NCBI RefSeq assembly: GCF_000020385.1
Contig: NC_010814.1
Location: 2,130,001-2,162,000, forward strand
DNA: 32,000 nt
Reading direction: 5' to 3'
Origin: Trichlorobacter lovleyi SZ
Lineage (GTDB): Bacteria > Desulfobacterota > Desulfuromonadia > Geobacterales > Pseudopelobacteraceae
The notes below the pieces were generated by a model. That model made no database searches. It was not told where the DNA came from and saw nothing but the letters and a program-made list of their open reading frames with translations. The position numbers and the translations under genes were made by a program. This document shows positions 9,634 through 32,000 of the stretch, piece after piece (within the stretch, counting starts at the first letter, position 1; each line of letters starts with the position of its first letter).

Positions 9634-9698
9634 CCTCCCCTTGTAGGGGAGGAGATAATCGGGGAAGGTGTTTCAATATCCCCCCTTATCAAGGGGGA
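9634..9698. repeat. Two similar short C-run/G-run hairpins in the yajC-secD intergenic spacer
   Basis: CCTCCCCT-tgt-AGGGGAGG (9634-9652; 8 bp, 3-nt loop) and CCCCCTT-atc-AAGGGGG (9681-9697; 7 bp, 3-nt loop). Both lie in a strongly purine/pyrimidine-skewed 122-bp spacer. Confidence 0.6.
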
Positions 9699-9720
9699 CC
9701 GAGGAGGGTTAGGTAATCGT

Positions 9721-12217
<2,497 letters not shown>

Positions 12218-12233
12218 CTACAGTCCCACCAGC

Positions 12234-13364
12234 CTAGAATTCAGACAGCTTGCTCAGCTTGGTGCCGGGATAGTAGTATGACAGTATCTCGGTATAGCTG
12301 AAACCATCAAGGGCACGCTGCTTGGCTCCATATTGGCATAATCCCACACCATGACCATAACCGGAACCACTGAAATAAGCGGTTCCTCCTTCAACCCTGA
12401 CTGAAAAGTTGGTGCTTCTGATTACTGTTGAGCCGACCGCCATCCTGAATTTAGTGGCAAGGATCGTGATAGTTCCACGTTCTGTTTCCAGCTGCACCGT
12501 CTTCAGACGTCCACGGTTGTTACGCGGGCCGGCCTTGATGTCGGTCAGACCGTACACCTTTTGGGCCTTCAGTGATGACTCAATTTTGGATAAGGGCACG
12601 CTCTGTTCCCAGCTGCTGGTCGTTGAGGTCAGGCCGTACTGACATTCAACACCCTTCAGATACGGAAGGGCCACTCCCCAGACATTTTCTGACGACTCGG
12701 TGCGGCCACCACTGTTGGCATGATAAAAAGCCTGGATAACCGTACCGTTATACGTCAACACCTCACCTTCTGTCTCAATAACGCCGCGTACAGCCCGGCT
12801 ATCTTCCTCATCACTACCTTCGTAGGCCTGATCCATTACCGTAGATTCAAGGTGGTAAAAGGCTCTGCTGCGTTCCTTGCGCTTTGCCACAGCATAGGTA
12901 CGTGCAATTACAGCCTGGGTCTTGATTGATTCCATTGGCCAGGTTGAGGAGATCTCACTTGTAATAACGCCAATCAGATACTGTTCAAGCGGCAGTTCAT
13001 TTATCACCAGTATCTTACCATTGTTCTGGAGCGACAACTCAATCTGACCACGGTACGATTTACCGTTAACCCGCATCAGACCGCCTGCAGCAAGCCGCAC
13101 CAGCTGACTTGAGCTGTTTCCGGCGAGTATCCTGCCCCGTTCACTCCTCACAGCAACAGGGAGGTCAAGCACGATGGGCTTACCGCCGGCATCAGTCGCT
13201 AGTACGCCATCGCCGTCAATGGTCACGGAATCAGCACCCTTGATAATAGCAACTCTGATCAACCCGCTTGACTGAGATGGTTCTTTGGCGCTGGCTATTT
13301 CTACAGAAAAAGCGACAGGCAGCAGACAACCTATGGTTATGATGAGAAGATATAAATATTTCAT
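12234..13364 (-). CDS. SpoIID/LytB-domain protein (secreted, peptidoglycan-associated)
   Basis: SpoIID motifs YHANSGGRTE and GHGVGLCQYGA. The start is trimmed to the ATG at 13362-13364 (MKYLYLLIITIGCLLPVAFSVEIASA, a signal peptide). The upstream 95 codons of the ORF-track call are the antisense reading of the dppD-like Walker A region. Confidence 0.85.
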   Translation of the reverse strand: MKYLYLLIITIGCLLPVAFSVEIASAKEPSQSSGLIRVAIIKGADSVTIDGDGVLATDAGGKPIVLDLPVAVRSERGRILAGNSSSQLVRLAAGGLMRVNGKSYRGQIELSLQNNGKILVINELPLEQYLIGVITSEISSTWPMESIKTQAVIARTYAVAKRKERSRAFYHLESTVMDQAYEGSDEEDSRAVRGVIETEGEVLTYNGTVIQAFYHANSGGRTESSENVWGVALPYLKGVECQYGLTSTTSSWEQSVPLSKIESSLKAQKVYGLTDIKAGPRNNRGRLKTVQLETERGTITILATKFRMAVGSTVIRSTNFSVRVEGGTAYFSGSGYGHGVGLCQYGAKQRALDGFSYTEILSYYYPGTKLSKLSEF

Positions 13365-13407
13365 GAATAAATCCAGAGGGGTCAGATAGAACCATAAAGC
13401 ATGATTA

Positions 13408-13457
13408 CTGTCAAACAGTTTCCCTGCACCGCCCCCCCCTGTTTCGAGGTTTGACAG
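13408..13457. promoter_or_regulatory. Inverted repeat flanking a C8 tract in the divergent spoIID-like / dppD-like promoter region
   Basis: CTGTCAAAC (13408-13416) pairs perfectly with GTTTGACAG (13449-13457). The inner CAAACAG/CTGTTTC is partly complementary as well. A C8 homopolymer lies at 13432-13439 between the arms. Confidence 0.4.
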
Positions 13458-13488
13458 AGACGGTTGCAGCAAGGTAAACTGCGTCACT

Positions 13489-14445
13489 ATGGCACTACTT
13501 GAAATCAGCGACCTGATAACAATCCTACCGACCCAGCACGGTTCTGTCCATGCCGTGAATGGTGCCAGTCTCAGTCTTGAGCGGGGCCAGACCGTGGCAC
13601 TGGTGGGAGAATCAGGCTCCGGCAAGAGCATGACCGCCCGCTCTATCATGGGGTTGATCCCTGCTTCCGGCAGAATCAGTCATGGTTCCATCCGGCTGGA
13701 CGGCCGTGAACTGCTGGAACTGCCGGAGGAGGAGTTACGGCTTTTACGCGGCAACAGGATTGCCATGATCTTTCAGGAGCCGATGACCTCCCTGAACCCT
13801 GTCCTGCGTATCGGCGATCAGTTAATGGAGCCGCTTCTGCTACACCGCGCCATGGATACAGAGACCGCCAGGCAGCACGCAATCGAGCTGTTGCATCAGG
13901 TTGGTATCCCCAGCCCTGAACTGCGGATCAAGGATTACCCGCACCAGCTTTCCGGAGGGATGCGTCAGCGGGTCATGATCGCCATGGCCCTGGCCTGTTC
14001 GCCCGATGTCCTGATTGCCGACGAGCCGACCACCGCCCTTGATGTTACCATTCAGGCCCAGATTCTTGAACTGATTGACCAGTTGCGCCAGGACAAAGGA
14101 TTGGCATTGCTGCTGATTACCCATGACCTGGGTATTGTGGCTGAACGGGCCGACCGGGTACATGTCATGTATGCCGGACGGATTGTCGAATCTGCTCAAA
14201 CCGCAGACCTTTTGACGCAGCCGTTGCACCCCTATACCCGGGGGCTGCTGGCCTCCCTGCCGGAAAATGCCGAACCGGGCAGGCCGCTCAAGACCATTGC
14301 CGGCCATCCTCCCGACATGACCACCGAGATTACCGGCTGTCCTTTCAACCCCCGCTGCCCGGATGCCAGGGATTGCTGCACAGTCATGCCAGAGCAACGT
14401 GACATGGGTTTGTCTCACCTGGTACGCTGCTGGAACTACCTATGA
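13489..14445 (+). CDS. Oligopeptide/dipeptide-type ABC transporter ATP-binding protein (DppD/OppD-like)
   Basis: 318 aa with Walker A GESGSGKS, signature LSGGMRQR, Walker B LIADEPTTALD, and the C-terminal oligopeptide-ATPase extension HPYTRGLL...CPFNPRCP. Confidence 0.9.
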   Translation: MALLEISDLITILPTQHGSVHAVNGASLSLERGQTVALVGESGSGKSMTARSIMGLIPASGRISHGSIRLDGRELLELPEEELRLLRGNRIAMIFQEPMTSLNPVLRIGDQLMEPLLLHRAMDTETARQHAIELLHQVGIPSPELRIKDYPHQLSGGMRQRVMIAMALACSPDVLIADEPTTALDVTIQAQILELIDQLRQDKGLALLLITHDLGIVAERADRVHVMYAGRIVESAQTADLLTQPLHPYTRGLLASLPENAEPGRPLKTIAGHPPDMTTEITGCPFNPRCPDARDCCTVMPEQRDMGLSHLVRCWNYL

Positions 14446-15431
14446 GCCGCTCTATCCTGGCAGCAGATAGGGTGAGCAAGAGTTTTGATCTGAAAGGATC
14501 AGGGCTTAGCGCGGGGAATAAACTACGGCTCAAGGCGGTGGATACCGTTTCTCTGAACCTTACAGCCGGAGAAACCCTTGGCATAGCCGGGGAATCCGGC
14601 TGTGGCAAGTCAACCCTTGCCAAACTGATCACCGGGCTGTTGCAACCGGATAGTGGCGTGGTCAGCTTTCAGGGCAACGATATCAGACAGCTTGCTGCGC
14701 CGGATACCCGGCAGTTCCGTCGTTCTGTCCAGATGGTATTTCAGGACCCGTTCTCATCCCTGAACCCCCGTATGCGGATCGGTGATACCATTGCTGAACC
14801 GCTCCTGATCCATAAGCTGTGCGATGTGGACCGTATCCGCGAAACCAGCGTCAACCTGATGGAGCAGGTTGGCCTGTCCGGTGACCAGTACGACCGTTTC
14901 CCCCACGAATTTTCAGGGGGTCAGCGTCAAAGGATCGGCATTGCCCGTGCACTGGCTGCCAGACCTGCCGTGCTGATTGCCGACGAACCGGTATCGTCAC
15001 TTGATATTTCCATCCAGGCCCAGATCATCAATCTGTTGCAGGATCTTAAACAGCAACATGGTCTGAGCCTGCTGATGGTCAGCCATGATCTCGGCGTGCT
15101 GCGCCATATCTGTGACCGGATAGCGGTTATGTATCTGGGGGCTGTGGTTGAGCTGGCACCGGCCAGTGAGCTGTTTACCCATTGCCGTCATCCCTACAGC
15201 CAGGCCCTGCTGGCTGCAATCCCCAGCATTCACAAGAACTCCGGAATATCCTGCCGGCCATTGCGTTCCCATGACGTACCGTCTGCTGCCAATCTGCCGG
15301 AGGGGTGCCGTTTCCACCCCCGTTGTCCCTATGCTGAAGAGATCTGCAGAAAGGAAAGCCCCATGTTGCAGGAGCAGCGTCCAGGACACCTTGCAGCCTG
15401 TCATCTCAGCGACAGGATATTCACAGAGTAG
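14442..15431 (+). CDS. Oligopeptide/dipeptide-type ABC transporter ATP-binding protein (DppF/OppF-like)
   Basis: 329 aa with GESGCGKS, FSGGQRQR, LIADEPVSSLD and HPYSQALL...CRFHPRCPYA. ATGA overlap with the preceding gene. Confidence 0.9.
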   Translation: MSRSILAADRVSKSFDLKGSGLSAGNKLRLKAVDTVSLNLTAGETLGIAGESGCGKSTLAKLITGLLQPDSGVVSFQGNDIRQLAAPDTRQFRRSVQMVFQDPFSSLNPRMRIGDTIAEPLLIHKLCDVDRIRETSVNLMEQVGLSGDQYDRFPHEFSGGQRQRIGIARALAARPAVLIADEPVSSLDISIQAQIINLLQDLKQQHGLSLLMVSHDLGVLRHICDRIAVMYLGAVVELAPASELFTHCRHPYSQALLAAIPSIHKNSGISCRPLRSHDVPSAANLPEGCRFHPRCPYAEEICRKESPMLQEQRPGHLAACHLSDRIFTE

Positions 15432-15518
15432 AGTAAACTTGATTTGGTATGTGCAGGCTTGGGTGCTGTATGGCTTTTTGAAGCGGGTCAGGCCGGATTA
15501 AGCCCCTAGCCATAATGG

Positions 15519-15887
15519 CTAGAAGACAAAATGCAGTTTGACGCTTAAACCGTTGATTGGCGGCACTTCCTGGTTCGATGCCATGTTGATGCGCGGCACT
15601 TCCTGCTGTGTATGCGGATCTTCCGGTGGACAGTACGCAAACACCATCTGTACGGAGCCATATTTCACCACCAGATCCCCGTTTTCATTCAGCCTCACGG
15701 TTGCGGCTGTTTTCTGTCTGTTCGGGGGAGTCTGTTGCCAGGAGACAGCACTACCTGTGTCATCTTTAAAGAAGACCAGAAGCGATTCAGCACAGACTGT
15801 TTGAGGGACAAGGACGGCAATAAGAGCAGCTACGGCAACAAGACGTTGAAAGGTTACGATGCATAACAACCTGCGACAAGCTGCCAT
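15519..15887 (-). CDS. Small secreted hypothetical protein (122 aa) with an OMP-like C-terminal aromatic motif
   Basis: ATG at 15885-15887, 6 nt after GAAGGGGG. Signal peptide MAACRRLLCIVTFQRLVAVAALIAVLVPQTVCA/ES. The C-terminus LSVKLHFVF alternates hydrophobic residues and ends in Phe. No recognisable family. The ORF-track start (15941) would place the terminator-region hairpin inside the coding sequence. Confidence 0.55.
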   Translation of the reverse strand: MAACRRLLCIVTFQRLVAVAALIAVLVPQTVCAESLLVFFKDDTGSAVSWQQTPPNRQKTAATVRLNENGDLVVKYGSVQMVFAYCPPEDPHTQQEVPRINMASNQEVPPINGLSVKLHFVF

Positions 15888-15939
15888 TGGGAGCCCCCTT
15901 CGGGCATCTGCTGCCCGGTGCCGTTGAAAGTCCCGGCAC

Positions 15940-15987
15940 AAAAAACCGGGACGCGTACGTATCTTGGCAGATATTTCGGCGACCCGG
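15940..15987 (-). terminator. Intrinsic terminator acting as the riboswitch expression platform
   Basis: On the minus strand, CCGGGUCGC (15987-15979) pairs with GCGUCCCGG (15954-15946) in 8 of 9 positions. An inner 5-bp stem UAUCU/AGAUA carries a GCCA loop. U6 follows immediately (15945-15940). The 5' arm is part of the conserved 3' strand of the upstream aptamer. Confidence 0.6.
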
Positions 15988-16050
15988 CTGTCTCAGAGAG
16001 ATCCTGTAGGCTTTCCGTCCCATCCTCGCGAATGGTTTAGTATTATCGTG
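15968..16050 (-). promoter_or_regulatory. GEMM-I-like (c-di-GMP-I / cGAMP class) riboswitch aptamer
   Basis: The minus-strand RNA reads CACGAUAAUACUAAACCAUUCGCGAGGAUGGGACGGAAAGCCUACAGGAUCUCUCUGAGACAGCCGGGUCGCCGAAAUAUCUG. It contains AAACC, a 6-bp helix CCAUUC/GGAUGG capped by the GNRA loop GCGA, GGGACGGAAAGCC, and the 3' element AGCCGGGUCGCCGA. These match the conserved core of GEMM-I as I recall it from the V. cholerae Vc2 aptamer. This is a by-eye call, not a covariance-model score. Confidence 0.65.
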
Positions 16051-16340
16051 TATCCATGGTATGTAGCTTTATAATCCAGCATAAAGCGTGCCCAGTCTGA
16101 TATTTTTTTCAGCAACCCGCCCAATCGGCCGTTTTGAGGAACTGAATCAGTATACCGTCATGGGCAAGCAGCTCGCCTTGTGGCGCTTTTTGTTTTTATT
16201 GAGTGACATTTTTTTGCAGTTTTTTCGTAATTTCCAGCAACCAACATGGATCGCTTGACCAGAGTGTGGGAAACTGCAGAATAATTCAAAACAACCTACG
16301 GCTTTCAAAACAGCCGGCTCCGAAACAAAGAAAGCACACT

Positions 16341-17479
16341 ATGAACTTTACTCTCTTAAAAAAAGACACTCACTCAGCCGCCCGGCTCGGCATCCTCCAG
16401 ACCAGCCATGGCGAAATCCAGACTCCGATCTTCATGCCGGTGGCCACCCATGGAGCCATGAAGCCGCTGACCCCGGCCCAGATCCATGAAACCGGGGCAC
16501 AGATCATCCTCTCCAACACCTACCATCTGCACCTGCAGCCCGGTGAAGGACTGGTCAAAAAGGCTGGTGGACTACACAGATTCATGGCCTGGGAAAAACC
16601 GATCCTGACCGATTCAGGCGGGTTCCAGGTCTTTTCACTGCCCAAGAAGCGGATTACTGAAGATGGCGTCTTTTTCAAACATGAGCTGACCGGCGAAGAG
16701 ATCTACCTTGATCCGGCCAAGGCGATCGGTATCCAGCAGGAGCTGGGCTCAGACATTATGATGGCCTTTGATGAATGCATCCCCTACCCCTGCGACAAGG
16801 CCTATGCCGAGCAGTCCACTAAAAAGACGATCCGCTGGCTGAAGGAGTGTCAGAAAGCCTGGACCAACCGTGAGACCCAGGCCCTGTTCGGCATTGTCCA
16901 GGGCAGCGTGTATGAAGACCTGCGGATCATGTGCGCCAAAGAGATGCGCAAGCTGGACCTGCCCGGCTATGCCATCGGCGGGGTCAGCGTGGGCGAAGGC
17001 CTGGAACTGCTCAAAAAGGTGGTGGGCTGGACCGCCCCGCACCTGCCGGAGGACAAGCCACGCTACCTGATGGGAGTCGGCCTGCCTGAAGATATTCTGG
17101 AAAGTGTTGAGCGGGGTATGGATATGTTTGACTGCGTGATCCCGACCCGCTACGCCCGCAGTGCCACCCTGTTTACCCGGCGCGGCAAGATCAGGGTCAC
17201 CAACAAAAACTACAAACGGGATTTTTTCCCGGTTGACCCCTCCTGCAGCTGCTACACCTGCCAGAACTTCAGCCGGGCCTATCTGCACCACCTGTTTGCT
17301 GCCAACGAGGTGCTTTCGGCAGTACTGTCCGCCATCCACAACGTCACCTTCTACCTGCAAATGATGGCAGAGATCCGTCAAGCCATTGCAGACAACCGCT
17401 TTATGGCCTATAAACAGGCCTTTCTGGCTGAATACCTGGCCTCAGAAAAACAGCCCCAAGGACCAAAGAAACACACAAA

Positions 17480-17483
<4 letters not shown>
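16341..17483 (+). CDS. tgt: Second full-length tRNA-guanine transglycosylase paralog
   Basis: 380 aa from the ATG at 16341; the ORF-track GTG at 16203 adds a non-homologous extension. Motifs: [47 protein letters not shown] and the zinc site CSCYTCQNFSRAYLHHL. Confidence 0.9.
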
Positions 17484-19739
<2,256 letters not shown>

Positions 19740-19765
19740 TCTTGAAGCACCAGTTGAGAGTATTC

Positions 19766-19797
19766 AAAGGACGGGGATATCCCCGTCCTTTGTTTTT
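19766..19797 (+). terminator. Rho-independent terminator after eno
   Basis: AAAGGACGGGG-atat-CCCCGTCCTTT is a perfect 11-bp stem (19766-19791). It is followed by GTTTTT. Confidence 0.75.
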
Positions 19798-19870
19798 GGA
19801 GCTGCTGATCTGGATTTTCAGGCAGCCTGTGGTATAGGTACAGCATCATCCACCTGAAGGAGCAGATCTG

Positions 19871-21388
19871 ATGCCCACAAACACCTGGAACCGCTTTCAG
19901 CAACATCTCTGCCACTGCCCCGAGATCGGCCTCTGGCTTGATATCAGCCGGATGAAATTTGATGACGAGTTCCTGAGCCGGATGGAACCGTCCATGCAGC
20001 AGGCCTTTGATGCCATGCTTGCCCTTGAACAGGGAATCATCGCCAACCCGGATGAAGGGCGTATGGTTGGTCATTATTGGCTACGTAGCCCTGCCCTTGC
20101 ACCCACACCGGAAATCCGTCAGCAGATTGAGTCCACCGTTGACCGGATTGAGTCTTTTACCGCTGACATCCACACCGGCAGGATTTCTGCTCCGGGTAAT
20201 AAAACCTTTTCCAAGCTTCTGATAATCGGTATAGGCGGATCTGCGCTGGGTCCCCAGTTTGTGGCGGATGCCCTGGGCAGCAGCACCGATAAGATGACGC
20301 CCTATTTTCTGGACAACACTGACCCGGACGGCATGGACCGGGTCTTCAGCCAGATCGGCGATCTCTCTGACTGTCTGGTGATTGTAATTTCCAAAAGCGG
20401 TTCCACCAAAGAGACCCGCAACGGCATGTTAGAGGCCCAGGCAGCCTGGCAACGGTCCGGACTGGATTTCAGCAAACAGGCCGTTGCCATTACCGGTGAT
20501 GGCAGCGAACTGGACAAGCTGGCCCTGGCAGAAGACTGGATCACCCGTTTTCCGATGTGGGACTGGGTCGGCGGCCGCACCTCGGTCACCTCGGCTGTCG
20601 GGCTTGTGCCTGCTGCCCTGCAGGGGCTGGATATCCGGGCACTGCTGAAAGGCGCCCAGGTCTGCGACCAGATCACCCGAAGCAGGATTACCACTTTTAA
20701 CCCGGCGGCCCTGATGGCCTTGATGTGGCACCACGCCACGGATGGCTGCGGAAACAAAGATATGGTGATGCTGCCGTACAAGGACCGCCTGCTACTCTTC
20801 TCCCGCTATCTGCAGCAACTGATCATGGAATCCATCGGCAAGGAGCTGGACCTGAACGGCAAACCGGTTTGCCAGGGGTTAACGGTCTACGGCAACAAAG
20901 GCTCCACTGACCAGCATGCCTATGTGCAGCAGTTGCGGGAAGGGGTGCACAACTTCTTTGTAACCTTCATCGAGGTGTTGCAGGACCGCCAGGGCAGCTC
21001 CATGCAGGTTGAGGAAGGAGTGACCAGCGGCGACTTTCTGTTCGGCTTCCTGTACGGCACCAGACAGGCCCTGTCTGAGAAGGGGCGCGAGTCCCTGACC
21101 ATCACGGTTGAGCAGATTGATACTGCCACCATCGGCGCCCTGATCGCCCTGTTTGAACGAACTGTCGGTCTGTATGCCTCACTGGTCAACATCAATGCCT
21201 ACCACCAGCCGGGTGTAGAAGCAGGCAAAAAAGCTGCCGGAGCTGTAATCACGCTCCAGAAAAAGGTGCAGGCATTTTTGGCTGCAAATGCGGATGAAAC
21301 CTCACCTGAGAAGATTGCCAACGCGATCGGTGCAACGGAACAGATAGAAACCGTGTACGCCATTCTGCGGCGTCTGCAGCACCGTTAA
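19871..21388 (+). CDS. pgi: Glucose-6-phosphate isomerase
   Basis: 505 aa with PGI motifs GIGGSALGP and [10 protein letters not shown], and a C-terminal region [24 protein letters not shown] lies 8 nt upstream of the ATG. Confidence 0.9.
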
Positions 21389-21408
21389 CCCAACCATAGC
21401 TATTTACA

Positions 21409-21456
21409 GACAAAGGCTCAAGCGCCAGAAAACATCCTGCCGATTGAGCCTTTGTC
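21409..21456. terminator. Long perfect hairpin between the convergent pgi and ABC ATPase genes (possible bidirectional terminator or RNA-stability element)
   Basis: GACAAAGGCTCAA (21409-21421) pairs perfectly with TTGAGCCTTTGTC (21444-21456): 13 bp with a 22-nt loop. There is no clear T-run on either strand. Confidence 0.4.
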
Positions 21457-21484
21457 ATATTGTGCCATTACCCCGTAACAGGAT

Positions 21485-22576
21485 TCAACTTCTCTTCAAC
21501 AACACCGTCACCCTGTTTATTTCTTCACAGCGCTGGTAGTCGATCTGCTGTGCCAGGTGGGTGATGATATTCAGCCCCAGCTCATCGGGCAGGCGGTCTT
21601 TATCCAGCAGGTTGACCGCCTCTCCCCGGTTCTCCAGAATGATCTCCAGGCTCTCCTTCTTTTCAGAATAGGCGATGGTCAGGTCAAGGGCGGTTGTGGC
21701 CAGCAGCGGGGTATGGATCTGCAGCAGTTCTTCCACCAGCAGCAGCAGGTTGTGCCGGGTCTTTCTGGGCAGGATCTGCCGTTCGCAGAAGATCTCGATC
21801 TCCGCATTCATGGCGTACAGGTCATAGTCAGTTGAGCTGATGCAGTAGTTGAAGCTGCGGATCCGGTTGATAAAGGCCCTGGTCTTTTCCTTCTGAGGGT
21901 TTTCAAAGATCTGCTGCGGGGTGCCTTCTTCATAGATCAGGCCTTCGTCCATGTAGAGCACCCGGCTGGAGACATCACGGGCAAAGTCCATCTCATGGGT
22001 GACGATCAGCATGGTCATGCCGTCCTTGGCCAGTCTGCGGATGACCGCCAGTACCTCGCTGACCATGGTGGGGTCAAGGGCCGAGGTCGGTTCGTCAAAC
22101 AGGATGATCTCCGGGTTCATGGCCAGGCAGCGGGCAATGGCCACCCGCTGTTTCTGACCACCGGACAGTTCATCGGGGAAGCTGTCGGCCTTTTCAGCCA
22201 GCCCCACCAGTTTGAGGATCTCCAGGGCCTTCTGTTCTGCTTCCTGTTTGTTGATCCCCAGCAGCCTGACCGGACCGATGGTCAGGTTTTCCTGGACGGT
22301 CAGGTGGGAGAAGAGGTTGAAGGATTGAAAGACCATGTTCATCCGCTGCCGGATCCTGGGGATGTCGCTCTTTTTGTCCAGCAGGTCGATCCCGTCTACG
22401 GCGATTGATCCGCCGCTGGGTTGTTCCAGCAGGTTGAGACAGCGCAGGAAGGTGGATTTGCCGGTGCCGGACGGTCCGATGATGGAGATGACTTCTCCCT
22501 TGGCAACGCTGAGGGAGATGTCTTTCAGTACGGTGACCTCACCGTAGGTCTTTGAGAGGTGTGCTACCCTGATCAT
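21485..22576 (-). CDS. Polar-amino-acid-type ABC transporter ATP-binding protein with an extra C-terminal domain of about 120 aa
   Basis: 363 aa. Residues 1-240 form a GlnQ/ArtP-like ATPase ([38 protein letters not shown]). Residues 241-363 are additional. ATGA overlap with the upstream permease gene (22573-22576). Confidence 0.9.
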
Positions 22577-24819
22577 GCCCTGCCTGCCTTTCTCTTTTTG
22601 TATTTGGGATCAGTGATCCGTTCCAGGTACTCAAGGGATTGCATCAGTGTCCATGAGATCAGGAAGTAGAGGATGGCCACCATGACCAGGGGAAAGAAGG
22701 CGTCAAAGGTGCGGCTGCGGATGATGTCGCTGGCCTTGGTCAGATCCTGTACGGCGATGTAGCCGACAATGGAGGTCATCTTGACCAGGGAGATGAACTC
22801 GCCTTTGTAGACCGGCAGGATCCGCCGCACCATCTGGGGCAGTACAATATGCAGGAAGGTGCTGGTCCTGGTGAAGCCTAAAGAGATACCAGCCTCGGTC
22901 TGCCCCTTTTCCACCCCTTCAATGCCGGTCCTGAAGATCTCGGCGGTGTAGGCGCCGAAGTTCATCCCAAAGGCGATCACCGCCACAATGACCGGGCTGA
23001 TGTTGATTGAGGCAAAGACGACATAGAAGATCAGCATCAACAGCACCAGTACCGGTGTGCCCCGCAGGATGGCGATGTAGAGCCTGGCAGGGGCAGAGAG
23101 CAGCCTGCTCTTTGCCATCCGCATGAAGCAGATCAGCGCCCCCAGCAGGGTGCCGAAGAGGGTGGCGAAGACCGAAATGACCACGGTGGTCTTGAGACCG
23201 TCCAGGATCAGCAGATACCGCATCTCATGGATGATGTTGCTCTGAAAACTGGTGACAAGGTCGCTGAAAAAGGAGGGAGCGGCCGTTGTCGCAGATGAGC
23301 CGGTCTTTCTGACCAGCACCGATATATCATTTGTAATATAGGGAACAGAAAAATTGATCAGCTTCTTCCGCTCTTCTGTCACGTTGAAATTGGAGAGTGC
23401 AAAGTCAATCTTGCCTGATTGCAGCGCTGGAATCAGGGCTTCAAAATTCATGTCGATGATCTCTATTTTTTTATTGAGACGTTCCCCGAGCAGCTGGCTC
23501 AGTTCACGGTCAAGCCCGGTGATGATGCCGTTTGACTGGAATGAAAACGGTTCAAGGTTGGCGCAGGTTCCCATCCGCAGCACACCGCTGGTATGCACAG
23601 CTTTAGCGGGCTGCAGCTGCGGGGTGGCGGTGTATTTTGTATCAACCCATTTTGTTCTCAGGCGCTGCAGTTCACCTTCCTGTTTCAAGCTTTGTAATGC
23701 CTTGTTCATTTCTGAAAGCAGTGCGGTATTATCCTTTCTGAGCGCTGCAGCCACTTCCAGTTTATCCACCGCTTGATCAAGAATCATCAGCTCCGGATTC
23801 TTTTCAGCCAGATTCAACAGTACGCTTTTGTCATAGACAAAGGCATCCGCCTTATTGGTCGTAATCGCCAGGGCGGCGTCCGCTGCTGCCGTAAAAACCT
23901 GGAATTGCGAGCCTGAAAATTTTTGACGGGCTGCCATTTCGCCCGCCGAGCCGGGCAGAACGCAGATCCGTTTGCCTTTCAAGCTGTTAAGCGTGCTCAG
24001 CTCTGACCTGTCTGATACTGTAGAAAGAGGCGCAACAGCGGGTTTTCTGACCAGCATGACCTGTTTATTGGCAAAATAGGGCTGTGTAAAGTTGACTGTC
24101 TTTTTGCGCTCACTGGTTGCTGTCATGCCGCTGATGATCAGATCAACCTTGCCCGACTGCAGGGCCGGAATCAATGCCATGAATTTCATATTAAAAAATT
24201 CAACCGGTCTCTGAAGTTTTACAGCAATGATACGGGCCAGTTCACCGTCAAAACCTGACACTCTGCCGTGGTCATCTACAAAACTGAACGGCTCCCGTGT
24301 GGCGCTCACCCCTATTTTGAGGATCTTGCCCTGCCTGAGTGGTACGACATCAAGTTCTTGATACGGACTTAAATCCGGCTTCAACCACCGTTTTTCCATA
24401 TCCGCCAGCGTGCCGTCAGCTTTCAGTGCAGCAACAATCCGATCCACCGTTGCCAGCAACTGATCATTGTCTTTTCTGACGGCAATGGCGGTATCTTCAA
24501 AATCAAGCGGCTCCGGCAGGATTCTTAATTCAGGATTCTTTTTTGAGACCTGCAGGGCAGCCGGAAACAGGGTGATGATCGCATCCAGCTGCCCTGATTT
24601 TATGGCTGCAACAGCATCCATGATGTCGTCAAAACTCTTGACCTGGGCTTTGGGAAACCGCTTGGCAGCAACAGCCTCGCCGGTTGAACCGGTCATCACG
24701 CCGATCCTGGCTTTTTGGGCATCGGCAAAACCGACTATAAGCTTTTCATTCTTGCTACAACCGCTCAAGAAAATACTCAGCACCCAAAAGACAAGTGCCA
24801 AATGTACAGCTTTTATCAT
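22573..24819 (-). CDS. Lipoprotein fusion: solute-binding-domain modules (family 3) fused to a polar-amino-acid ABC permease
   Basis: 748 aa with a lipobox signal [24 protein letters not shown]_bac_3-like sequence spans aa 27-147, 165-392 and 413-505. The TMD (aa ~530-735) carries the EAA loop [21 protein letters not shown]. Confidence 0.9.
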
Positions 24820-24822: not shown

Positions 24823-26769
24823 TTACCCTTTCCGATCATCCTGTATCCCCCGGTATTTTATGGCGACCATGGTAACGTCGTCAGATTGCGGAGCGCCATT
24901 GGCATGGTGTGTAATTTCGTCACGAATATAATGCACCATGTCAGTCAACTCCAGATCGGGAACACGTTGCAGGGCCTGCAGCAACTGTTCCTCCCCATAC
25001 AGCTCGTCAGCACGGTTGGTTGCCTCGGTAACACCGTCGGTATACATGAACAATGTATCTCCCGGCTGCAGGGTAAGATGCTCGGTTGTATAGGTCATAT
25101 CCTGCATCGGACCCAGCACAAAACCTGGTTTCAGGTTCAGATAGCGTATCTTTTGAGACTCTATCAACAGCGGCGGATTATGGCCTGCATTGGCAAAACG
25201 GACTTCTCCGGTTCTAACATCCAGAATGCCGCAAAAAACCGTAGCAAACATGCAGCTGTCATTGTCAGTGGCAAGTACGTTATTGACATAGCCAAGTATC
25301 TGGTCAGGCTCACCCAGCCGCTGTCCTTCAGACTTCAGGAGGGTCTTTGCCACCATCATATACAGTGCGGCAGGCACCCCCTTGCCGGCCACATCAGCAA
25401 TCAGGAAGCAGAGATTATGCGCATCAATAAAAAAGAAATCATAGAAATCCCCGCCAACCTCCTTGGCCGGGTCCATTGAGGCAAAGATATCGAACTCCGG
25501 TCGATCCGGAAACGCGGGAAACAGACGGGGAAGCAGGCTGGCCTGGATATCGGTGGCAACCTTGAGTTCACTCTTGATCCGCTCTTTGGCCGCAGTGGTC
25601 TCGGTCAGATTCCTGATGTACTCCTTGAGAGACTCCTTCATCATCTGAAAGTCCTGGGTGAGCAGGCCGACTTCATCTTTTGTGCGGATCGGCGGAAGGT
25701 CCAGATCAAAGTTGCCTGATGCCATCAGGTGGGTTGCTGCAGCCAGCGAACGCAGCGGTTTCGTGATGGAGCTGGCAATGGAAACCACCGCCGCAGTCAG
25801 AACGAGGATGCCGACAAACCCCATGGCAGCCATGGTCATGCTCAAGCGCCTGACATTTTCCAGCAGCTCCGACTCAGGAAACACTACAGCAAGCGTCCAT
25901 CCGGTTGATCTGATCGGTGTGTAGTACATCCAGCTCCTGACACCCACCAGGCTCTTGTAGAGTATGAAACCGGATTCTCCCCTGACCATCTTTTTACCCA
26001 GTTCCCGCAGTGACGGATCCTTGCGTTCCTCGGCAATGCTGAAGAAGGTCTCATTCATAACTGCATCCTTCAACGGATGGGCGAGCAACATCCCGTTACG
26101 TGAAAGAAGCGCGGCATAACCGGTCTTGAGTATCCTGGTAGAGGAAACAAGCTTTGTCAGAGAGTCCAATGAGATATCAGCCGTCACGACCCCTTTGAGA
26201 TGCTTTATTCCGTTGACCGTATCGTAAAAAGGTACCGAACAGGTGGACATTGAAATATTGCCGGCCCCTTCGTCAAAGTACGGTTCGCTCCATTCACGCT
26301 TGCCAAGTTCCCGCGGGATCTGGTACCAGTCCCAGTAGAGGTACGGCACGTGCTGGTAGGCTGTTTCCAGGCGACTGAAGGCAATCGATCCCTTTTCCCG
26401 GTAAAAATAGGGAGCATACAGACGGGTAGATTTGCTGAAGGCGTAGGGTTCAAAGGCCACAGTAGATCCGTATATCTCCGGATTTTTCTCAACTGTTGCA
26501 CGGATCAGCGCCAACAGTTCCTGCTCACTATAGCGGCCGGTTTCCAGTGAACGGGCCACCCCTTCTGTCACCTTGGCGACTGCAACAAGCTCTGTCTCCA
26601 CCCGGTGCACCAGTGACATGGCAAGATTGCGTGCGTTGTTTTCCAGCTCCTGTTCCAGTATCTGCCGGGAACGGTAATAGTTGTAGCCGAGCGCTGCGGC
26701 AAAGATGCACGAGCAACAGAGTGTGATTACGAATACCAGCCTGACGACAATGCTACTTTTCCCGGGCAT
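24823..26769 (-). CDS. Membrane sensor phosphatase: extracytoplasmic Cache-like domain, HAMP, PP2C/SpoIIE (RsbU-type) phosphatase
   Basis: TM1 (VVRLVFVITLCCSCIFAAALG), a periplasmic region of about 270 aa, TM2 (MTMAAMGFVGILVLTAAVVSI) and a HAMP linker. PP2C motifs GGDFYDFF, DVAGKGVPAAL, TDGVTEA and DDVTMVAI. The preferred ATG is 26767-26769, 4 nt after GGGAGG. The ORF-track ATG at 26793 has no SD. Confidence 0.88.
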   Translation of the reverse strand: MPGKSSIVVRLVFVITLCCSCIFAAALGYNYYRSRQILEQELENNARNLAMSLVHRVETELVAVAKVTEGVARSLETGRYSEQELLALIRATVEKNPEIYGSTVAFEPYAFSKSTRLYAPYFYREKGSIAFSRLETAYQHVPYLYWDWYQIPRELGKREWSEPYFDEGAGNISMSTCSVPFYDTVNGIKHLKGVVTADISLDSLTKLVSSTRILKTGYAALLSRNGMLLAHPLKDAVMNETFFSIAEERKDPSLRELGKKMVRGESGFILYKSLVGVRSWMYYTPIRSTGWTLAVVFPESELLENVRRLSMTMAAMGFVGILVLTAAVVSIASSITKPLRSLAAATHLMASGNFDLDLPPIRTKDEVGLLTQDFQMMKESLKEYIRNLTETTAAKERIKSELKVATDIQASLLPRLFPAFPDRPEFDIFASMDPAKEVGGDFYDFFFIDAHNLCFLIADVAGKGVPAALYMMVAKTLLKSEGQRLGEPDQILGYVNNVLATDNDSCMFATVFCGILDVRTGEVRFANAGHNPPLLIESQKIRYLNLKPGFVLGPMQDMTYTTEHLTLQPGDTLFMYTDGVTEATNRADELYGEEQLLQALQRVPDLELTDMVHYIRDEITHHANGAPQSDDVTMVAIKYRGIQDDRKG

Positions 26770-27787
26770 TGGACCTCCCGCTGAAGGTGGCATAGTCGGG
26801 ATAGCTCCGGATCAGACCATTTGCACGCAGAGCACGGCCAACCCCCTCATAATCCTGCTGTTTGAGCAGGCCCGGTAATCCTCGGGGAGCGTCGTACATG
26901 ATCAGATCCCGCATCCGGTCAAGCATCCATTTCTGATGAACCCGGTTGGCAGGTATCTGAGCCTCGCGCATATACTTGATGACAACATCCAGCGCTTCAT
27001 CCGGATGGGCAAAGGCGTAATGCCACCCCTCCAGCGAGGCCGCCACAAAGGCTTTTGCCAGGGCTGGATCATTTTGCAGTGTCTTTTCCAGGGTATAAAT
27101 CCCGTCTTCCGGGTACTGCATCCCCAGTTCATGAAGTGAGAAAACCTGCAGCTCATCGGGATCAAGCCCTGCATTGAGCATCACATGGTACTCGTTATAC
27201 CACATGGCGGATGTCACATCGATGCCGTCGCGCAGAAAGAGGTTTATCGTGTGTGACTGGGGAACCTCCCGCACCTTGATCCCGTACCTGGCGACCAGAG
27301 CACGCGGTGGTATTGACAACTCTCCTCCCCACATCCCTACCTTCCTGCCGTTCATATCCTTAACAGTTTTAATGCCGCTGGATTTTTTAGCGACCAGCAT
27401 CATTGAGGAACGCTGAATGATCTGCGCCAGGTTCACCAGTTTTACACCGGCAGAGTGGCGTTTCAGCGCCGTTGTCAACCAGAGCACGGCAAAATCCGCC
27501 TTGCCCTCCTGCAGGGTCTGTGCAGGAGAATAGCCCGGTCCGGCCTTGAGAATCTTCAGGTCAATGCCGTGGCGGGCATAGATCCCTTTGTCAAGGGCCA
27601 CATAATAGCCGGCAAACTGGGCCTGGGGGCTCCAGAGCGGCATCAGGGAGGCCTTTTTCAGGGCAGTTTCAACGGCGCCGGCAGGAGACCAGGGGGCATA
27701 ACAGAGTACAAACAGCATCAGTGCGCTGATCTGCCTCAGCCAGGTCCATCCGTTGTGATTGCGTTGTGATTGGAGTGAGATGGTCAT
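26753..27787 (-). CDS. Periplasmic NMT1/THI5-like (nitrate/sulfonate/bicarbonate family) substrate-binding protein
   Basis: 344 aa with a signal sequence (LRQISALMLFVLCYAPWSPAGA). Family-typical N-terminal block PLWSPQAQFAGYYVALDKGIYARHGIDLKIL and the later block GRKVGMWGG. The stop overlaps the start of the phosphatase gene. Confidence 0.78.
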   Translation of the reverse strand: MTISLQSQRNHNGWTWLRQISALMLFVLCYAPWSPAGAVETALKKASLMPLWSPQAQFAGYYVALDKGIYARHGIDLKILKAGPGYSPAQTLQEGKADFAVLWLTTALKRHSAGVKLVNLAQIIQRSSMMLVAKKSSGIKTVKDMNGRKVGMWGGELSIPPRALVARYGIKVREVPQSHTINLFLRDGIDVTSAMWYNEYHVMLNAGLDPDELQVFSLHELGMQYPEDGIYTLEKTLQNDPALAKAFVAASLEGWHYAFAHPDEALDVVIKYMREAQIPANRVHQKWMLDRMRDLIMYDAPRGLPGLLKQQDYEGVGRALRANGLIRSYPDYATFSGRSNAREK

Positions 27788-29289: not shown

Positions 29290-31389
29290 TTACAGCGTGG
29301 GATACAAGGTCTGCAGGTGTGCCTTCATGGCCGGGCTGAGCTGTTTGAACAGCTGGGCATTGTATGATGCGTTGTACGGTACCCCTTGCAGGGTCAGATC
29401 AACAAACTGGATTGATGGATCGGTATAGGCATCTCCGGAATGTGCTACAGCAATATCACCTCCCTGCACCCGGGTCGGGTCTATGGGACCAAAGTCATTA
29501 CCATAGTATGTCGCATAGTTTGGAGGATTGCCTTTTAACGGATTTTGCAGAATCTGCTGCGTTGCAATGGCATACTTGCGTGATGTTGCTGCGGGTGTGC
29601 CTTCTTTTACTGCGATATCAACATTCACCGCCTCAATTGAGATGCTGTAGTCGCTATTAATGAAGATCTCGAAGGTGCGGAACTGCTGCGGGAAATCACG
29701 CAGTGATGAGCTTTCAACCTGCCAGAAGCCGTTTTCAGGAACGCCTCCGATAGCAGGCGGTTGAAATGCCTTGACAGTGTTGACATGACGGTGCCCGGCG
29801 ATCCACATCAACAGGTTTGTGCTGTTCTGAAGGGTAGTAACCAACTCCGTAATAGTGCAGGCATTCGTGATTGTGGCGTTGGAATCACCAAGCCACCATT
29901 CCAGTTCAGTGCCAACGTTGCTAACACAGATCGGGATATGGCAGGCAATGATCATCAGCTGATTGGCTGCCTGACCATCGGCAAGTTCCGCCTTAAGCCA
30001 GTTCCAGCGTGCTGCATCGAGGAAGCCGTGACCATGAATATCGAGAGAACCGTCGTCTTCACGCTGGGTATCATCCAGTACAATCACCTTCAGCGGCACA
30101 CTTGCCTTGGGCACAAAACTGTAGCAGGCAAACCCGGCTCTGTCAGCAGCCGGAACCAGACCAAAATTGGGGTTGGAAGTAACCAGGTTAAAACCATGGC
30201 CGACCGGACTGGTGGTTGTCTTGAAAAACTCCTGAATCCAATCGGTTCTAGGTAACGAGCGACGGTTGGGGTCGGCAACCACCTTGGGAGCCGTTGCGAG
30301 AGTTCCTGCGAATTTTATGGTACCCAACGGAGTTGTACCGTCAATTACGCCTTGATAGTATCTGTCATTTGAATCATTCAGCCTGGTATTGTTGATATTG
30401 GCCGGGAATAAGGCCGGTTGTGTAAGGGTGACGGGCGTAAGCAGGTCATTTGACACTGACCAGACCGTATCGCTAACGTATGACTCAGCAAGGCCGGCAG
30501 TCTCAGAGATTGGGAATGAGCCGATCATGAAATGGTCATGATTACCAAGGGCCTGATAAAACGGGATCGATTTATCCAGACCGGCAGCCTTGAACGGCTT
30601 CTGGTAATCAATGCTGTCGGCCCCGTCATGGGCACCGGAACTGGGTGTAATCACCTTACCGTCAATGATATCAAGATACCACCTGAGTTCGTTGTACATA
30701 CTAGTGTTGCAGACATCACCCAGCGAAATAAAGAAATCAAAGGGATCTTTCCTATGCAGGGCATTTGCCGTCTGAATGGCCGCATCAAAGACCTGGGGGG
30801 TGTACAACATAACACCGGAGTAGATGGAGCTGTTTTGCCCGGCAAAACCAGGAAGGCTTTGCTGGAGATAGATCAACTGATTGGGCGCTTCCTTGTCAGT
30901 CAGATGGATATCGGTCATGGCAAAGAAGTTCAGCAGCCGTGTCTTTTTGGTAACTAATGCGGCACTATAGCCGCTTGGCATGATATCGGTCCGCTGCACG
31001 ACCGGCAGTGGCCAGTCGACATAGCTCCATTTGCCATACCCCAAAGAATCATAGTCGGCAATCCGGTACAGCTGATTCCATTTAAGCGCGCTCTTGCCAT
31101 TGGGACTGTAGAGCGGGTCAGGCGGATCAGGCATTGTACCGGGAGAAGGAGCTGCAGAAGCCGGCGTGTAAGGGAATGAGATCATCCGCTCACTGGTTTT
31201 AACCACCTTTGAATCAATCGGGTATCCGGCAATCTGGGCTGAGCTGCTACTGCTGCTGCCACATCCATAATTAAGCGAGCCCAAAGAGATACAGGCAGCT
31301 GTTCCGGCAGTGTATTTGATGAAATCCCGTCGTGAAACTTCACCGCTTTTTTTCTGTTTATTCTCCTGCATCTTGACTTCGTCACTCAT
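29290..31389 (-). CDS. Tat-exported large metallophosphoesterase (calcineurin-like fold with long inserts; resembles the TIGR03768-type family)
   Basis: 699 aa from the ATG at 31387-31389 (SD AAGGGGA). Twin-arginine motif SRRDFIKYTAGTAA. Phosphoesterase motifs MTDIHLTD, LGDVCN, GNHDHF, ACHIP and GHRHVN. The ORF-track start at 31449 overlaps the upstream paralog stop and is not needed. Confidence 0.85.
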   Translation of the reverse strand: MSDEVKMQENKQKKSGEVSRRDFIKYTAGTAACISLGSLNYGCGSSSSSSAQIAGYPIDSKVVKTSERMISFPYTPASAAPSPGTMPDPPDPLYSPNGKSALKWNQLYRIADYDSLGYGKWSYVDWPLPVVQRTDIMPSGYSAALVTKKTRLLNFFAMTDIHLTDKEAPNQLIYLQQSLPGFAGQNSSIYSGVMLYTPQVFDAAIQTANALHRKDPFDFFISLGDVCNTSMYNELRWYLDIIDGKVITPSSGAHDGADSIDYQKPFKAAGLDKSIPFYQALGNHDHFMIGSFPISETAGLAESYVSDTVWSVSNDLLTPVTLTQPALFPANINNTRLNDSNDRYYQGVIDGTTPLGTIKFAGTLATAPKVVADPNRRSLPRTDWIQEFFKTTTSPVGHGFNLVTSNPNFGLVPAADRAGFACYSFVPKASVPLKVIVLDDTQREDDGSLDIHGHGFLDAARWNWLKAELADGQAANQLMIIACHIPICVSNVGTELEWWLGDSNATITNACTITELVTTLQNSTNLLMWIAGHRHVNTVKAFQPPAIGGVPENGFWQVESSSLRDFPQQFRTFEIFINSDYSISIEAVNVDIAVKEGTPAATSRKYAIATQQILQNPLKGNPPNYATYYGNDFGPIDPTRVQGGDIAVAHSGDAYTDPSIQFVDLTLQGVPYNASYNAQLFKQLSPAMKAHLQTLYPTL

Positions 31390-31448
31390 AGAGTTCCCCT
31401 TTGCTTGGATGTTGCTGCCTGATACTCTCTGCAACCCCAGTCCCTGCA

Positions 31449-32000
31449 TTATACCGGTGTGCCTGCGTTGGCGATGACTGCCTGCATTGTTGGAGTCAAT
31501 TGTACCACCAGTTCTGCATTTATCGAGTGGGAGGTAGCATCACCCATCGGAACGTGCGCGGTGATCCGTGCCGTGGCAATGGCGTTGCCCCGCGAGGTTG
31601 TTGCCGGAGATGCAGTTGATACTGCAGGATCAACATTGGTGATGATGATTGAGACGGTGTTATTGGTGTTGCGGTAGATCCTGAAGGTGCGGAACTGCTG
31701 TGGAAAATCCCGCAGTGACGAGGTCTCAACCTCCCAGAAACTGCGGGTAGGATCGGTGGGGTGAATCTGCGGCGTAACGGTGTTCATATGGCGGTGCCCG
31801 GCAATCCACATGATCAGGTTCGGATAGCCCTGAAGCACGGATAGCAATGCATCATCATTGACAACGGAATAGACGGGCATTGGGAGAAACAGCGTCATGA
31901 TCTGAGGATTTGTGGCCACTTGGGCAGGATCCGTCACCAGGTCTTTATACACCCTGAACGGTATATGTGCTGCAATGATCATCAGCTGGTTATTGTCCTG
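31449..32000 (-). CDS. Paralogous metallophosphoesterase, C-terminal part only (gene continues beyond the window end)
   Basis: The frame stays open to position 32000 (reads QDNNQLMIIAAHIP...). It aligns with the downstream paralog at NQLMIIA(C/A)HIP, MWIAGHRH(V/M)NTV and SSLRDFPQQFRTF. Confidence 0.8.
   Translation of the reverse strand, partial: QDNNQLMIIAAHIPFRVYKDLVTDPAQVATNPQIMTLFLPMPVYSVVNDDALLSVLQGYPNLIMWIAGHRHMNTVTPQIHPTDPTRSFWEVETSSLRDFPQQFRTFRIYRNTNNTVSIIITNVDPAVSTASPATTSRGNAIATARITAHVPMGDATSHSINAELVVQLTPTMQAVIANAGTPV

Follow-up and report, generated by a model that had tools for sequence, protein, structure and literature searches.

Post-translational control of bacterial ATP-binding cassette (ABC) importers is known for few systems: MetN, ModC, MalK with EIIA-Glc, OpuA, NrtCD with PII, and MlaFB. 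Partner-switching systems are widespread beyond the Firmicutes, and the outputs of most of them are unknown. The subject of this report is a gene of Trichlorobacter lovleyi SZ that may connect the two. It encodes an ABC ATPase that carries, behind its nucleotide-binding domain (NBD), an extra domain resembling the anti-sigma-factor kinases RsbW and SpoIIAB. The gene lies at 21485..22576 on the minus strand of a 32,000-nucleotide stretch (contig NC_010814.1, positions 2,130,001 to 2,162,000), called the window below, and its product has 363 amino acid residues. The extension is read here, with a probability of roughly 0.6, as a pseudokinase docking module that couples the importer to a partner-switching circuit.

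The one described example of a STAS protein acting on an ABC transporter is MlaB, which, according to the abstract of the study, binds and regulates the ATPase MlaF in the lipid transporter MlaFEDB (PMC7367683). RsbW homologues that have no kinase activity and serve solely to bind partners have also been documented. These are RsbW1 and RsbW3 of Mycobacterium smegmatis, of which RsbW3 pairs with RsbW1 (PMC7693655). In a 2023 review of ABC importer regulation, the words STAS, anti-sigma and partner do not occur (PMC10710835). A full-text literature search of limited coverage, which is no proof of absence, turned up no account of an RsbW-like domain joined to an ABC ATPase.

The protein from the window divides as follows.

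21869..22576, minus strand: GlnQ/ArtP-type ABC nucleotide-binding domain, residues 1-236, with Walker A, signature, Walker B and H-loop intact
21485..21868, minus strand: predicted RsbW/SpoIIAB-like pseudokinase domain at the C-terminus of the ATPase, residues 237-363 plus stop codon, with modelled topology b-a-a-b-b-a-b-b

The gene is the ATPase gene of a GlnPQ-type ABC importer for polar amino acids. The NCBIfam GlnQ model, which has 240 positions, matches residues 1-239 from end to end (E 8.6e-92) with a score of 306.8 bits, under the equivalog cut-off of 379, and Pfam ABC_tran matches residues 17-165 (E 3e-38). The translation contains a Walker A motif (GPSGTGKST), a signature (LSGGQKQR), a Walker B motif and an H-loop (VTHEM). 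In Foldseek comparisons the NBD is ArtP/HisP-like, ArtP (2olj) showing 56% identity and a TM of 0.95 on the target. Importer ATPases of the GlnQ/ArtP/HisP kind are recognized by ABC_tran with these motifs and a Q-loop, and by a partner permease with fused SBP_bac_3 domains, and both are found here. An earlier note on this stretch, made by eye, had remarked that GlnQ-type ATPases stop near residue 240 and that this protein continues. The GlnQ model does end at 239, leaving about 125 extra residues. The peptides quoted in that note are all present in the translation, and the part that it singled out, 21485-21856 on the minus strand, corresponds to residues 241-363 plus stop.

The Pfam scan of the extension (residues 241-363), made at E<=10, gave a single family, HATPase_c_2 (PF13581; E 6.2e-4, 20.2 bits, profile positions 7-125 of 127), and an NCBIfam scan matched none. 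When homologues were scanned singly at E<=1, 24 of 26 matched HATPase_c_2, with a best E of 6.3e-7, and for some database members the PF13581 match is precomputed. Stand-alone RsbW-like kinases are encoded near many related ATPases. Aligned with these by hhalign, the extension family reaches a probability of 99.6% over 117 columns (E 5e-24), and an HMM made from the same kinases matches the ATPase protein of the window at E 7e-13. Judged by these profiles and by its predicted structure, the extension is an RsbW/SpoIIAB-type GHKL domain with a Bergerat fold.

The AlphaFold2 model of the extension, made from the family alignment (pLDDT 90.9, pTM 0.85), has the b-a-a-b-b-a-b-b topology. Its 22 best Foldseek matches in the PDB are all of the RsbW type, and nearly all are anti-sigma-factor serine kinases (E 5.6e-6 to 1e-2; TM up to 0.73). 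They include UsfX (8ih8, 8jzt), SpoIIAB (1tid, 1th8, 1l0o, 1til, 1thn), RsbW (6m36, 6m37), the RsbW domain of Rv1364c (3ke6) and, at rank 19, SiaB (6kko). Histidine-kinase CA domains follow with much weaker scores. A sequence-profile search of the PDB with the extension family gave chance-level matches only (E >= 0.19). Sequence profiles alone thus fall short of the solved anti-sigma kinases, and the structure search reaches them.

Other candidate folds were also considered. TOBE, NIL, CBS and other ABC add-ons, including oligo_HPY and ACT, have no Pfam match at E<=10, and the structural matches point elsewhere. The fold proposed in the earlier note, which had likewise seen no TOBE, NIL or CBS domain, agrees with these results: both hmmscan and the AlphaFold/Foldseek comparison returned HATPase_c_2 or RsbW-type structures, and neither returned an unrelated fold.

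In the model and the family alignment, strand b1 occupies residues 239-246 and helix a1 residues 253-266 (YCISS...FCER). Helix a2 (271-293) bears the N-box remnant E282-E283...Q286. Strand b3 (309-317) is followed by the G1 remnant N316-R-G318, and strands b4 (342-350) and b5 (353-360) close the domain. The order of elements drawn up by eye matches this map; the position given there for the G1 Asp does not, being one residue off (N316, not E315).

In the model of the full-length ATPase (pLDDT 87.1), the last helix of the NBD (230-236) continues straight into b1 without a linker, and the extension occupies the place that regulatory domains have in MetN and MalK. Foldseek found no solved ABC ATPase in which two domains are arranged in this way; for MetN, MalK, CysA and PotA, good superposition is confined to the NBD.

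Conserved residues also occur outside the nucleotide-binding motifs. Phe263-Cys264 of helix a1 (21785-21790, minus strand) is invariant in 80 of 80 extensions. The junction R238-I-R-S241 between NBD and extension (21854-21865, minus strand) is nearly invariant, with Ser in 73 of 80. Cys264 could be redox-sensitive, or Ser241 could be phosphorylatable.

For the comparison of active sites, 80 extensions (from 79 related loci and the window) were aligned with 30 neighbouring intact kinases. The remnants of the catalytic motifs lie at the following positions.

21719..21733, minus strand: N-box remnant E282-E283-L-L-Q286, with Gln in place of the Mg/ATP-binding Asn and a one-residue deletion just before
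21623..21631, minus strand: G1-box remnant N316-R-G318, with the adenine-binding Asp changed to Asn (Ser in most relatives) and the Gly retained
21575..21586, minus strand: site of the ATP-lid deletion (between D331 and E332) and G2 remnant E332-L-G334; the kinases have G-G-L-G, the translation here reads DELG

The N-box Asn (alignment columns 109-114) occurs in none of the 80 extensions, which have Gln (67), Glu (4), Ala (3) or other residues (6), compared with 29 of 30 kinases. Likewise, the G1 Asp is found in 0/80 extensions (Ser in 50, Asn in 13, His in 5, others in the rest) and in 29/30 kinases; the central G1 Gly is retained in 79/80. An 11-residue segment forming the ATP lid (joint-alignment columns 168-181) is deleted in all 80, together with a conserved Arg and Gly that 28 and 29 of the 30 kinases possess. 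The G2 motif is reduced to (E/D)-L-G, its first two Gly residues being gone, compared with G 29, G 29, L 30 and G 30 of 30 in the kinases.

Since the Mg-binding Asn, the adenine-binding Asp and the ATP lid have all been lost, the extension most likely binds no ATP and phosphorylates nothing. From this alignment it is a kinase-dead, divergent member of the RsbW/SpoIIAB fold and is not classed as a kinase. The suspicion in the earlier note of degenerate catalytic residues and a pseudo-kinase is therefore borne out by counts of 0/80 for both the N-box Asn and the G1 Asp, and of 80/80 for the lid deletion.

Other parts of the domain are retained. The double Glu of the N-box helix persists, the first helix is almost invariant (...-x-F-C-E), and the residues around the former ATP pocket (E282, E283, G318, N322, D331, G334) are still conserved. 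A similar first helix occurs in some intact neighbouring kinases, for instance AVNLEIEDFCEQNEILPNK in locus L070 (related loci are cited by number), which points to descent of the extension from the same kinase lineage.

The extension is conserved in 43 database homologues, always behind the C-terminal end of the ABC domain, with a mean column identity of 57-70%. When one genome was scanned for each GTDB species, the fusion turned up in at least 218 species representatives from several phyla. The lineages are Geobacter/Trichlorobacter, other Desulfuromonadales, Desulfobacterales-like metagenome-assembled genomes, Chlorobiaceae, Methylococcales, Methylophilales, Burkholderiales, Ignavibacteria/Melioribacter, Rhodothermales, Victivallales and Syntrophomonas. 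Of these 218 loci, 80 were retrieved, and counts over 81 loci refer to these 80 and the window. The extension sits on a GlnQ-type ATPase in 80/80 retrieved loci and, wherever the gene is complete, makes up about residues 237-363 of a protein of about 363 residues. Cultured hosts among them are Trichlorobacter thiogenes (with a linked PP2C gene), Methylobacter marinus (with PP2C, STAS and kinase genes) and Methylovulum miyakonense (with PP2C and STAS genes).

A phmmer search of 1.84 billion cluster representatives gave 137 matches at E<=1e-3, and the full-length ones scanned are ABC ATPases. A search with the full-length protein gave at least 120 clusters with 72-91% identity. For the first 120 of these, every source name given is generic ("amino acid ABC transporter ATP-binding protein" or similar), so the extension is invisible to database users.

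More distant relatives exist as single chains, either with a transmembrane domain before the NBD and extension (569 amino acids) or with a substrate-binding domain in front of that again (882-883 amino acids). Two proteins in which the extension is oddly placed relative to the substrate-binding and permease domains (P0092, P0151) are probably merged gene calls. Versions of 571-573 amino acids with an apparent new N-terminal domain (L060, L068) were rejected as artefacts of calling open reading frames (ORFs) in GC-rich DNA; their true start is MIKVEHLSK.

In the window, the genes upstream of the ATPase belong to the same operon on the minus strand.

26753..27787, minus strand: NMT1/THI5-like periplasmic binding protein (Pfam NMT1 E 2.7e-44), first gene of the operon, overlapping the PP2C gene by 41 nt
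24823..26793, minus strand: RsbU-type membrane phosphatase of 656 amino acids with a periplasmic dCache domain, HAMP and a cytoplasmic PP2C domain (SpoIIE family), ending 3 nt before the permease gene
22573..24819, minus strand: GlnP-like subunit of 748 amino acids with two tandem SBP_bac_3 domains and a BPD_transp_1 permease domain, overlapping the ATPase start by 4 nt

The order of transcription is thus NMT1-like protein, dCache-HAMP-PP2C phosphatase, permease with two substrate-binding domains, and ATPase with extension; 3' of the ATPase gene lies a convergent gene for glucose-6-phosphate isomerase. The phosphatase matches SpoIIE (E 3.6e-53), MCP-like_PDC_1 (2.5e-28), dCache_1 (3.1e-17) and HAMP (6.7e-12), and the GlnP-like subunit matches SBP_bac_3 in three stretches (E 2.3e-75) and BPD_transp_1 (E 5.1e-17). 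The RsbU-type phosphatase had been placed in one operon with the ATPase by the earlier note, and its SpoIIE match and its distance of 3 nt from the permease gene agree with this. In some relatives (L056, L064, L065, L069, L072) the permease gene either encodes a product of 1000-1272 amino acids, in which the binding domains apparently number three or four, or is divided into separate genes for a substrate-binding protein (SBP) and an SBP-permease. The NMT1/PP2C gene pair recurs in 25 related loci, which suggests that the binding protein is a co-sensor for the phosphatase.

To survey gene linkage, ORFs were called in all 81 loci and clustered, and the recurrent families were annotated. Loci with at least 8 kb on both sides are termed fully flanked (n=36).

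dCache-HAMP-PP2C phosphatase: 40/81 loci, 23/36 fully flanked
STAS protein of about 111 amino acids (Pfam STAS E 1.3e-21): 42/81 loci, 22/36 fully flanked
Intact RsbW-like kinase of about 140 amino acids (HATPase_c_2 E 9.4e-28): 36/81 loci, 18/36 fully flanked
NMT1-like binding protein: 25/81 loci, 18/36 fully flanked
At least one of PP2C, STAS and kinase: 53/81 loci, 26/36 fully flanked

All three partner genes are present in 16 of the 36 fully flanked loci. The kinases have intact N-box, G1 and G2 motifs, and the STAS family retains the phosphorylatable motif D-Y-I-S-S-A-G-L. Among the neighbour families that recur, no gene for a sigma factor was noticed. The earlier note had found a partner-switching-like interaction plausible, and how often the extension co-occurs with PP2C genes is now answered by the 40/81 count. 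The proposed link to a partner-switching module is strengthened by relatives that carry the same dCache-HAMP-PP2C phosphatase with an adjacent STAS gene and an intact kinase; the physical interaction itself stays putative.

The STAS gene is often directly adjacent. In 31 of the 77 loci with enough downstream sequence it starts between -60 and +120 nt from the ATPase stop on the same strand, and these loci span Chlorobiaceae, Desulfuromonadales, Methylococcales, Burkholderiales, Syntrophomonas, Victivallales and Rhodothermales. The chance of finding any STAS gene in a given 20-kb region would be expected to be only a few per cent, and in this exact slot well below 1%. In L041, L064 and L077, all fully flanked, a STAS gene adjoins the ATPase gene and a kinase gene is lacking, which suggests that extension and STAS protein form the core pair. 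Weak evidence comes from a mirror-tree comparison of 28 loci: the divergence of STAS follows that of the extension when the NBD is controlled for (partial r 0.51), with 0.00 for the NBD given the extension.

The position of the kinase gene differs between lineages. In nine loci (L061, L062, L065, L069, L072, L073, L075, L078, L081) it lies about 370 nt (364-519) past the ATPase stop, just beyond the STAS gene, on the convergent strand. These loci are mostly Methylococcales, L072 belonging to the Rhodothermales; in Chlorobiaceae and Desulfuromonadales the kinase gene is downstream on the same strand.

The nearest relatives, in the Trichlorobacter clade, are without adjacent STAS or kinase genes and have a dCache-HAMP-PP2C phosphatase of 716-727 amino acids encoded downstream of the ATPase. 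In L008 (10429-12692), L002 and L004 two extra genes lie between the ATPase and this phosphatase. By eye, they encode a putative racemase/epimerase of the enolase superfamily and a multi-pass membrane protein. The same clade has a glycoside hydrolase family 3 gene upstream (Glyco_hydro_3, E 1.2e-71). These neighbouring genes may hint at the transported substrate.

An identical 363-residue ATPase is encoded on another contig, DAHVKC010000040.1 (GCA_027321085.1; locus L001). Positions 9295-21092 of that locus are 99.8% identical to 11484-23282 of the window, and the two diverge completely from 23282, inside the substrate-binding part of the permease gene. Instead of the NMT1 protein, the PP2C phosphatase and the fused 748-residue protein, L001 encodes a Peptidase_M14 protein, a separate SBP of 261 amino acids and an SBP-permease of 516 amino acids. 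Paralogous transporter operons may have recombined, or the metagenome assembly may be chimeric. Both upstream arrangements are probably genuine, because each recurs in other taxa.

The proposed mechanism starts from the fold of the extension, the loss of its catalytic motifs, its exclusive fusion to polar-amino-acid ABC ATPases and its conserved gene linkage. The membrane phosphatase encoded in this operon would sense a periplasmic ligand through its dCache domain, perhaps together with the NMT1-like binding protein, and would dephosphorylate a small STAS protein. In its unphosphorylated form the STAS protein would dock on the pseudokinase domains beneath the ATPase dimer. Docking would alter NBD closure and so switch amino-acid uptake on or off within seconds. 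The intact RsbW-like kinase would re-phosphorylate the STAS protein and take it off the transporter. The STAS protein would thus alternate between a live kinase and the fossil copy of a kinase on the transporter. Unphosphorylated STAS is the most likely docking partner, a narrower claim held with less confidence than the role as a docking module. We infer which protein binds the extension, whether transport goes up or down as a result, and which way the signal runs.

Several points weigh against this proposal. The score of the extension on PF13581, 20.2 bits, is below the curated cut-off of 27.4 bits; by profile-profile comparison, homology to the HATPase_c_2/RsbW family is secure despite this. 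Of the partner-switching components, the window contains the PP2C phosphatase; a STAS gene and an intact kinase gene are found in the family but not in these 32 kb. No STAS or second HATPase_c_2-like ORF was detected in the window even at E<=10, and when HMMs of the neighbour families were searched unfiltered against every six-frame ORF of at least 40 amino acids, no match was better than E 1.3. Because these genes are absent, either the STAS partner of this organism must be encoded outside the 32 kb or the extension must contact the co-operonic phosphatase directly.

The family offers further difficulties. In ten of the 36 fully flanked loci, PP2C, STAS and kinase genes are all missing from the surrounding 10 kb or so. 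L001, with its identical ATPase, has no PP2C gene upstream; linkage to PP2C is therefore frequent and not obligatory. In two loci of the Trichlorobacter clade (L003, L005) it is PP2C, not STAS, that directly follows the ATPase, starting at -9 and +1 nt from its stop, and this order fits direct contact between extension and phosphatase at least as well as STAS binding. The background rate for partner genes comes from general knowledge and not from matched GlnQ loci that lack the extension. The mirror-tree signal may reflect similar rates only, STAS and extension both being faster-evolving sequences. In SpoIIAB, the ATP lid is part of the surface that holds SpoIIAA; in the extension this lid is deleted. 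Finally, the main argument for a physical interaction is gene linkage, from which contact is deduced.

Direct contact with the phosphatase would give a different model, in which the extension behaves like RsbT. In Bacillus subtilis the GHKL protein RsbT binds and activates RsbU. Here the extension would bind the cytoplasmic part of the PP2C phosphatase, and the importer cycle, and with it substrate flux, would tune the phosphatase; the signal would run from transporter to switch, with the output, STAS and its target, located elsewhere. PP2C is the sole partner-switching gene in the window and belongs to the same tightly packed operon, in eleven loci, among them the window and those of its nearest relatives, PP2C occurs with neither STAS nor a kinase gene close by, and transporter and phosphatase are both located at the membrane. 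The PP2C genes at -9 and +1 nt in L003 and L005 hold the slot that STAS holds elsewhere. It is STAS, however, and not PP2C, that is the tightest and widest neighbour of the ATPase (31/77 loci), and L025 and L029 have STAS but no PP2C within reach. RsbU, moreover, binds RsbT through a helical N-terminal domain, whereas the phosphatase here has HAMP before its catalytic domain and lacks such a domain; RsbT is also an active kinase with an intact lid. A role of this kind is judged rather unlikely, and docking of STAS stays the preferred reading.

It is somewhat less probable again that the extension is a plain regulatory or dimerisation domain without phospho-signalling. It might form a homodimer like SpoIIAB under the NBDs and keep the subunits together, as the C-terminal domains of MetN, ModC or MalK do, bind a ligand (for trans-inhibition by the transported amino acid or adenine-nucleotide sensing in the remnant pocket), or pair with the stand-alone kinase as RsbW3 does with RsbW1. 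SpoIIAB and RsbW proteins are homodimeric and kinase-negative RsbW3 pairs with RsbW1 (PMC7693655), the location equals that of the regulatory domains of MetN and MalK, and several residues around the former pocket (E282, E283, G318, N322, D331, G334) remain conserved. In addition, extensions in the ten fully flanked loci without partner genes remain 58-70% identical to that of the window, and the identical protein exists without a PP2C neighbour. Such a domain would leave the adjacent STAS genes (31/77 loci, many phyla) and the partner genes generally (53/81) unexplained. Loss of the nucleotide-binding Asn, the Asp and the lid makes adenine-nucleotide sensing unlikely, and no ligand-binding family (ACT, TOBE, NIL, CBS) is detectable by Pfam. 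An active kinase, which would bind ATP in an unusual way and phosphorylate STAS or the transporter, making the ATPase a bifunctional transporter-kinase, is very improbable. Clear homology to true kinases, the retained double Glu of the N-box and central G1 Gly, and the STAS genes without a separate kinase gene nearby in L041, L064 and L077 would be expected of it. Three of the four nucleotide-binding elements are nevertheless missing in 80/80 sequences, including the 11-residue lid, a second kinase would be superfluous in the 36 loci where an intact one of the same lineage is encoded alongside, and kinase-negative RsbW homologues are documented (PMC7693655).

Other features of the window lie outside this operon. 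The 719-residue ORF at 29290-31449 and the 177-residue ORF at 31449-31982, both on the minus strand, share a near-identical C-terminal stretch (LIMWIAGHRH.NTV…FW.VE.SSLRDFPQQFRTF). They look like tandem paralogues, the upstream one apparently cut down to its C-terminal part, and by eye the shared stretch resembles a metallophosphoesterase. The mechanical call of the enolase ORF (18129-19739, plus strand) has about 105 codons too many at its start and overlaps with the ORF of 291 amino acids before it. On the related contig enolase is called at 431 amino acids, and the true start in the window is probably a later Met.

If docking on the pseudokinase is correct, the extension is a new type of regulatory domain for ABC ATPases. 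It would also give partner switching a concrete and testable output that is not transcriptional, and would be a clear bacterial example of a pseudokinase kept as a docking module. If the alternative holds, the transporter is a sensor that passes information on nutrient flux to the switch. A broader claim, given slightly less than an even chance, is that of a new class of ABC regulation, in which a relay of dCache phosphatase, STAS protein and kinase gates import through STAS bound to a dead kinase and has reached at least seven lineages by horizontal transfer, or in which the transporter itself is the sensor. The components are small, soluble and easily expressed, and cultured hosts exist.

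Compared with known systems, the extension has the fold and element order of the RsbW, SpoIIAB and UsfX kinases, which are its best structural matches (8ih8_C, 1tid_A, 6m37; TM 0.54-0.73). The loci of relatives contain a phosphorylatable STAS protein and PP2C, as rsbV-rsbW and spoIIAA-spoIIAB do. Those kinases, however, are free proteins of about 140 residues, whereas here the domain is the C-terminal part of an ABC ATPase and lacks the N-box Asn, the G1 Asp and the ATP lid in all members. RsbW1 and RsbW3 of M. smegmatis are kinase-negative like the extension but are not fused to a transporter (PMC7693655).

The MlaFB pair resembles the arrangement in relatives of the window in that a single-domain STAS protein, encoded with an ABC transporter, acts on its ATPase subunit; it is the one documented case of such control by a STAS protein (PMC7367683). 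MlaB binds the NBD itself, and MlaF lacks an RsbW-like domain and ends in a short C-terminal tail; in the abstract, neither a kinase nor a phosphatase is described as acting on MlaB. MlaF (6xbd_I) aligns with the NBD of the model only, over 240 columns. Mla moves lipids, whereas the importer here takes up amino acids and depends on binding proteins.

In architecture, the C2/NIL domain of MetN, the TOBE-like domains of ModC and MalK and the CBS domains of OpuA are similar (PMC10710835). Each is an extra domain directly after the NBD, placed to dimerise beneath the NBD pair and gate its closure. Their folds are unrelated to the extension, and none of these families appears in the Pfam scan; MetN and MalK superpose on the model over the NBD only, with a full-length rmsd of more than 7 Å. 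They bind small ligands or EIIA-Glc, whereas the extension appears to descend from a protein-binding kinase. The solved chains of ArtP, HisP and TTHA1159, of 240-258 residues, end where the extension begins here. GlnPQ of Lactococcus lactis has tandem substrate-binding domains fused to the permease, as in the 748-residue GlnP-like protein.

SiaABCD of Pseudomonas aeruginosa is similar in that PP2C, an RsbW-like kinase and a phosphorylatable partner control an enzyme and not a sigma factor (SiaB-SiaC, 6kko). The output of SiaABCD is a diguanylate cyclase that is not known to have a kinase-like domain. Here the presumed output is a transporter, and a dead copy of the kinase within it would serve for docking. 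The nearest system in logic is therefore non-sigma partner switching as in SiaABCD, the nearest precedent for STAS on an ABC ATPase is MlaB with MlaF, and the nearest architecture is that of MetN, ModC, MalK and OpuA. In the ATPase of T. lovleyi, a fold and a signalling logic that are both known are joined to a transporter; this fusion is undescribed, widespread, unannotated and experimentally tractable.

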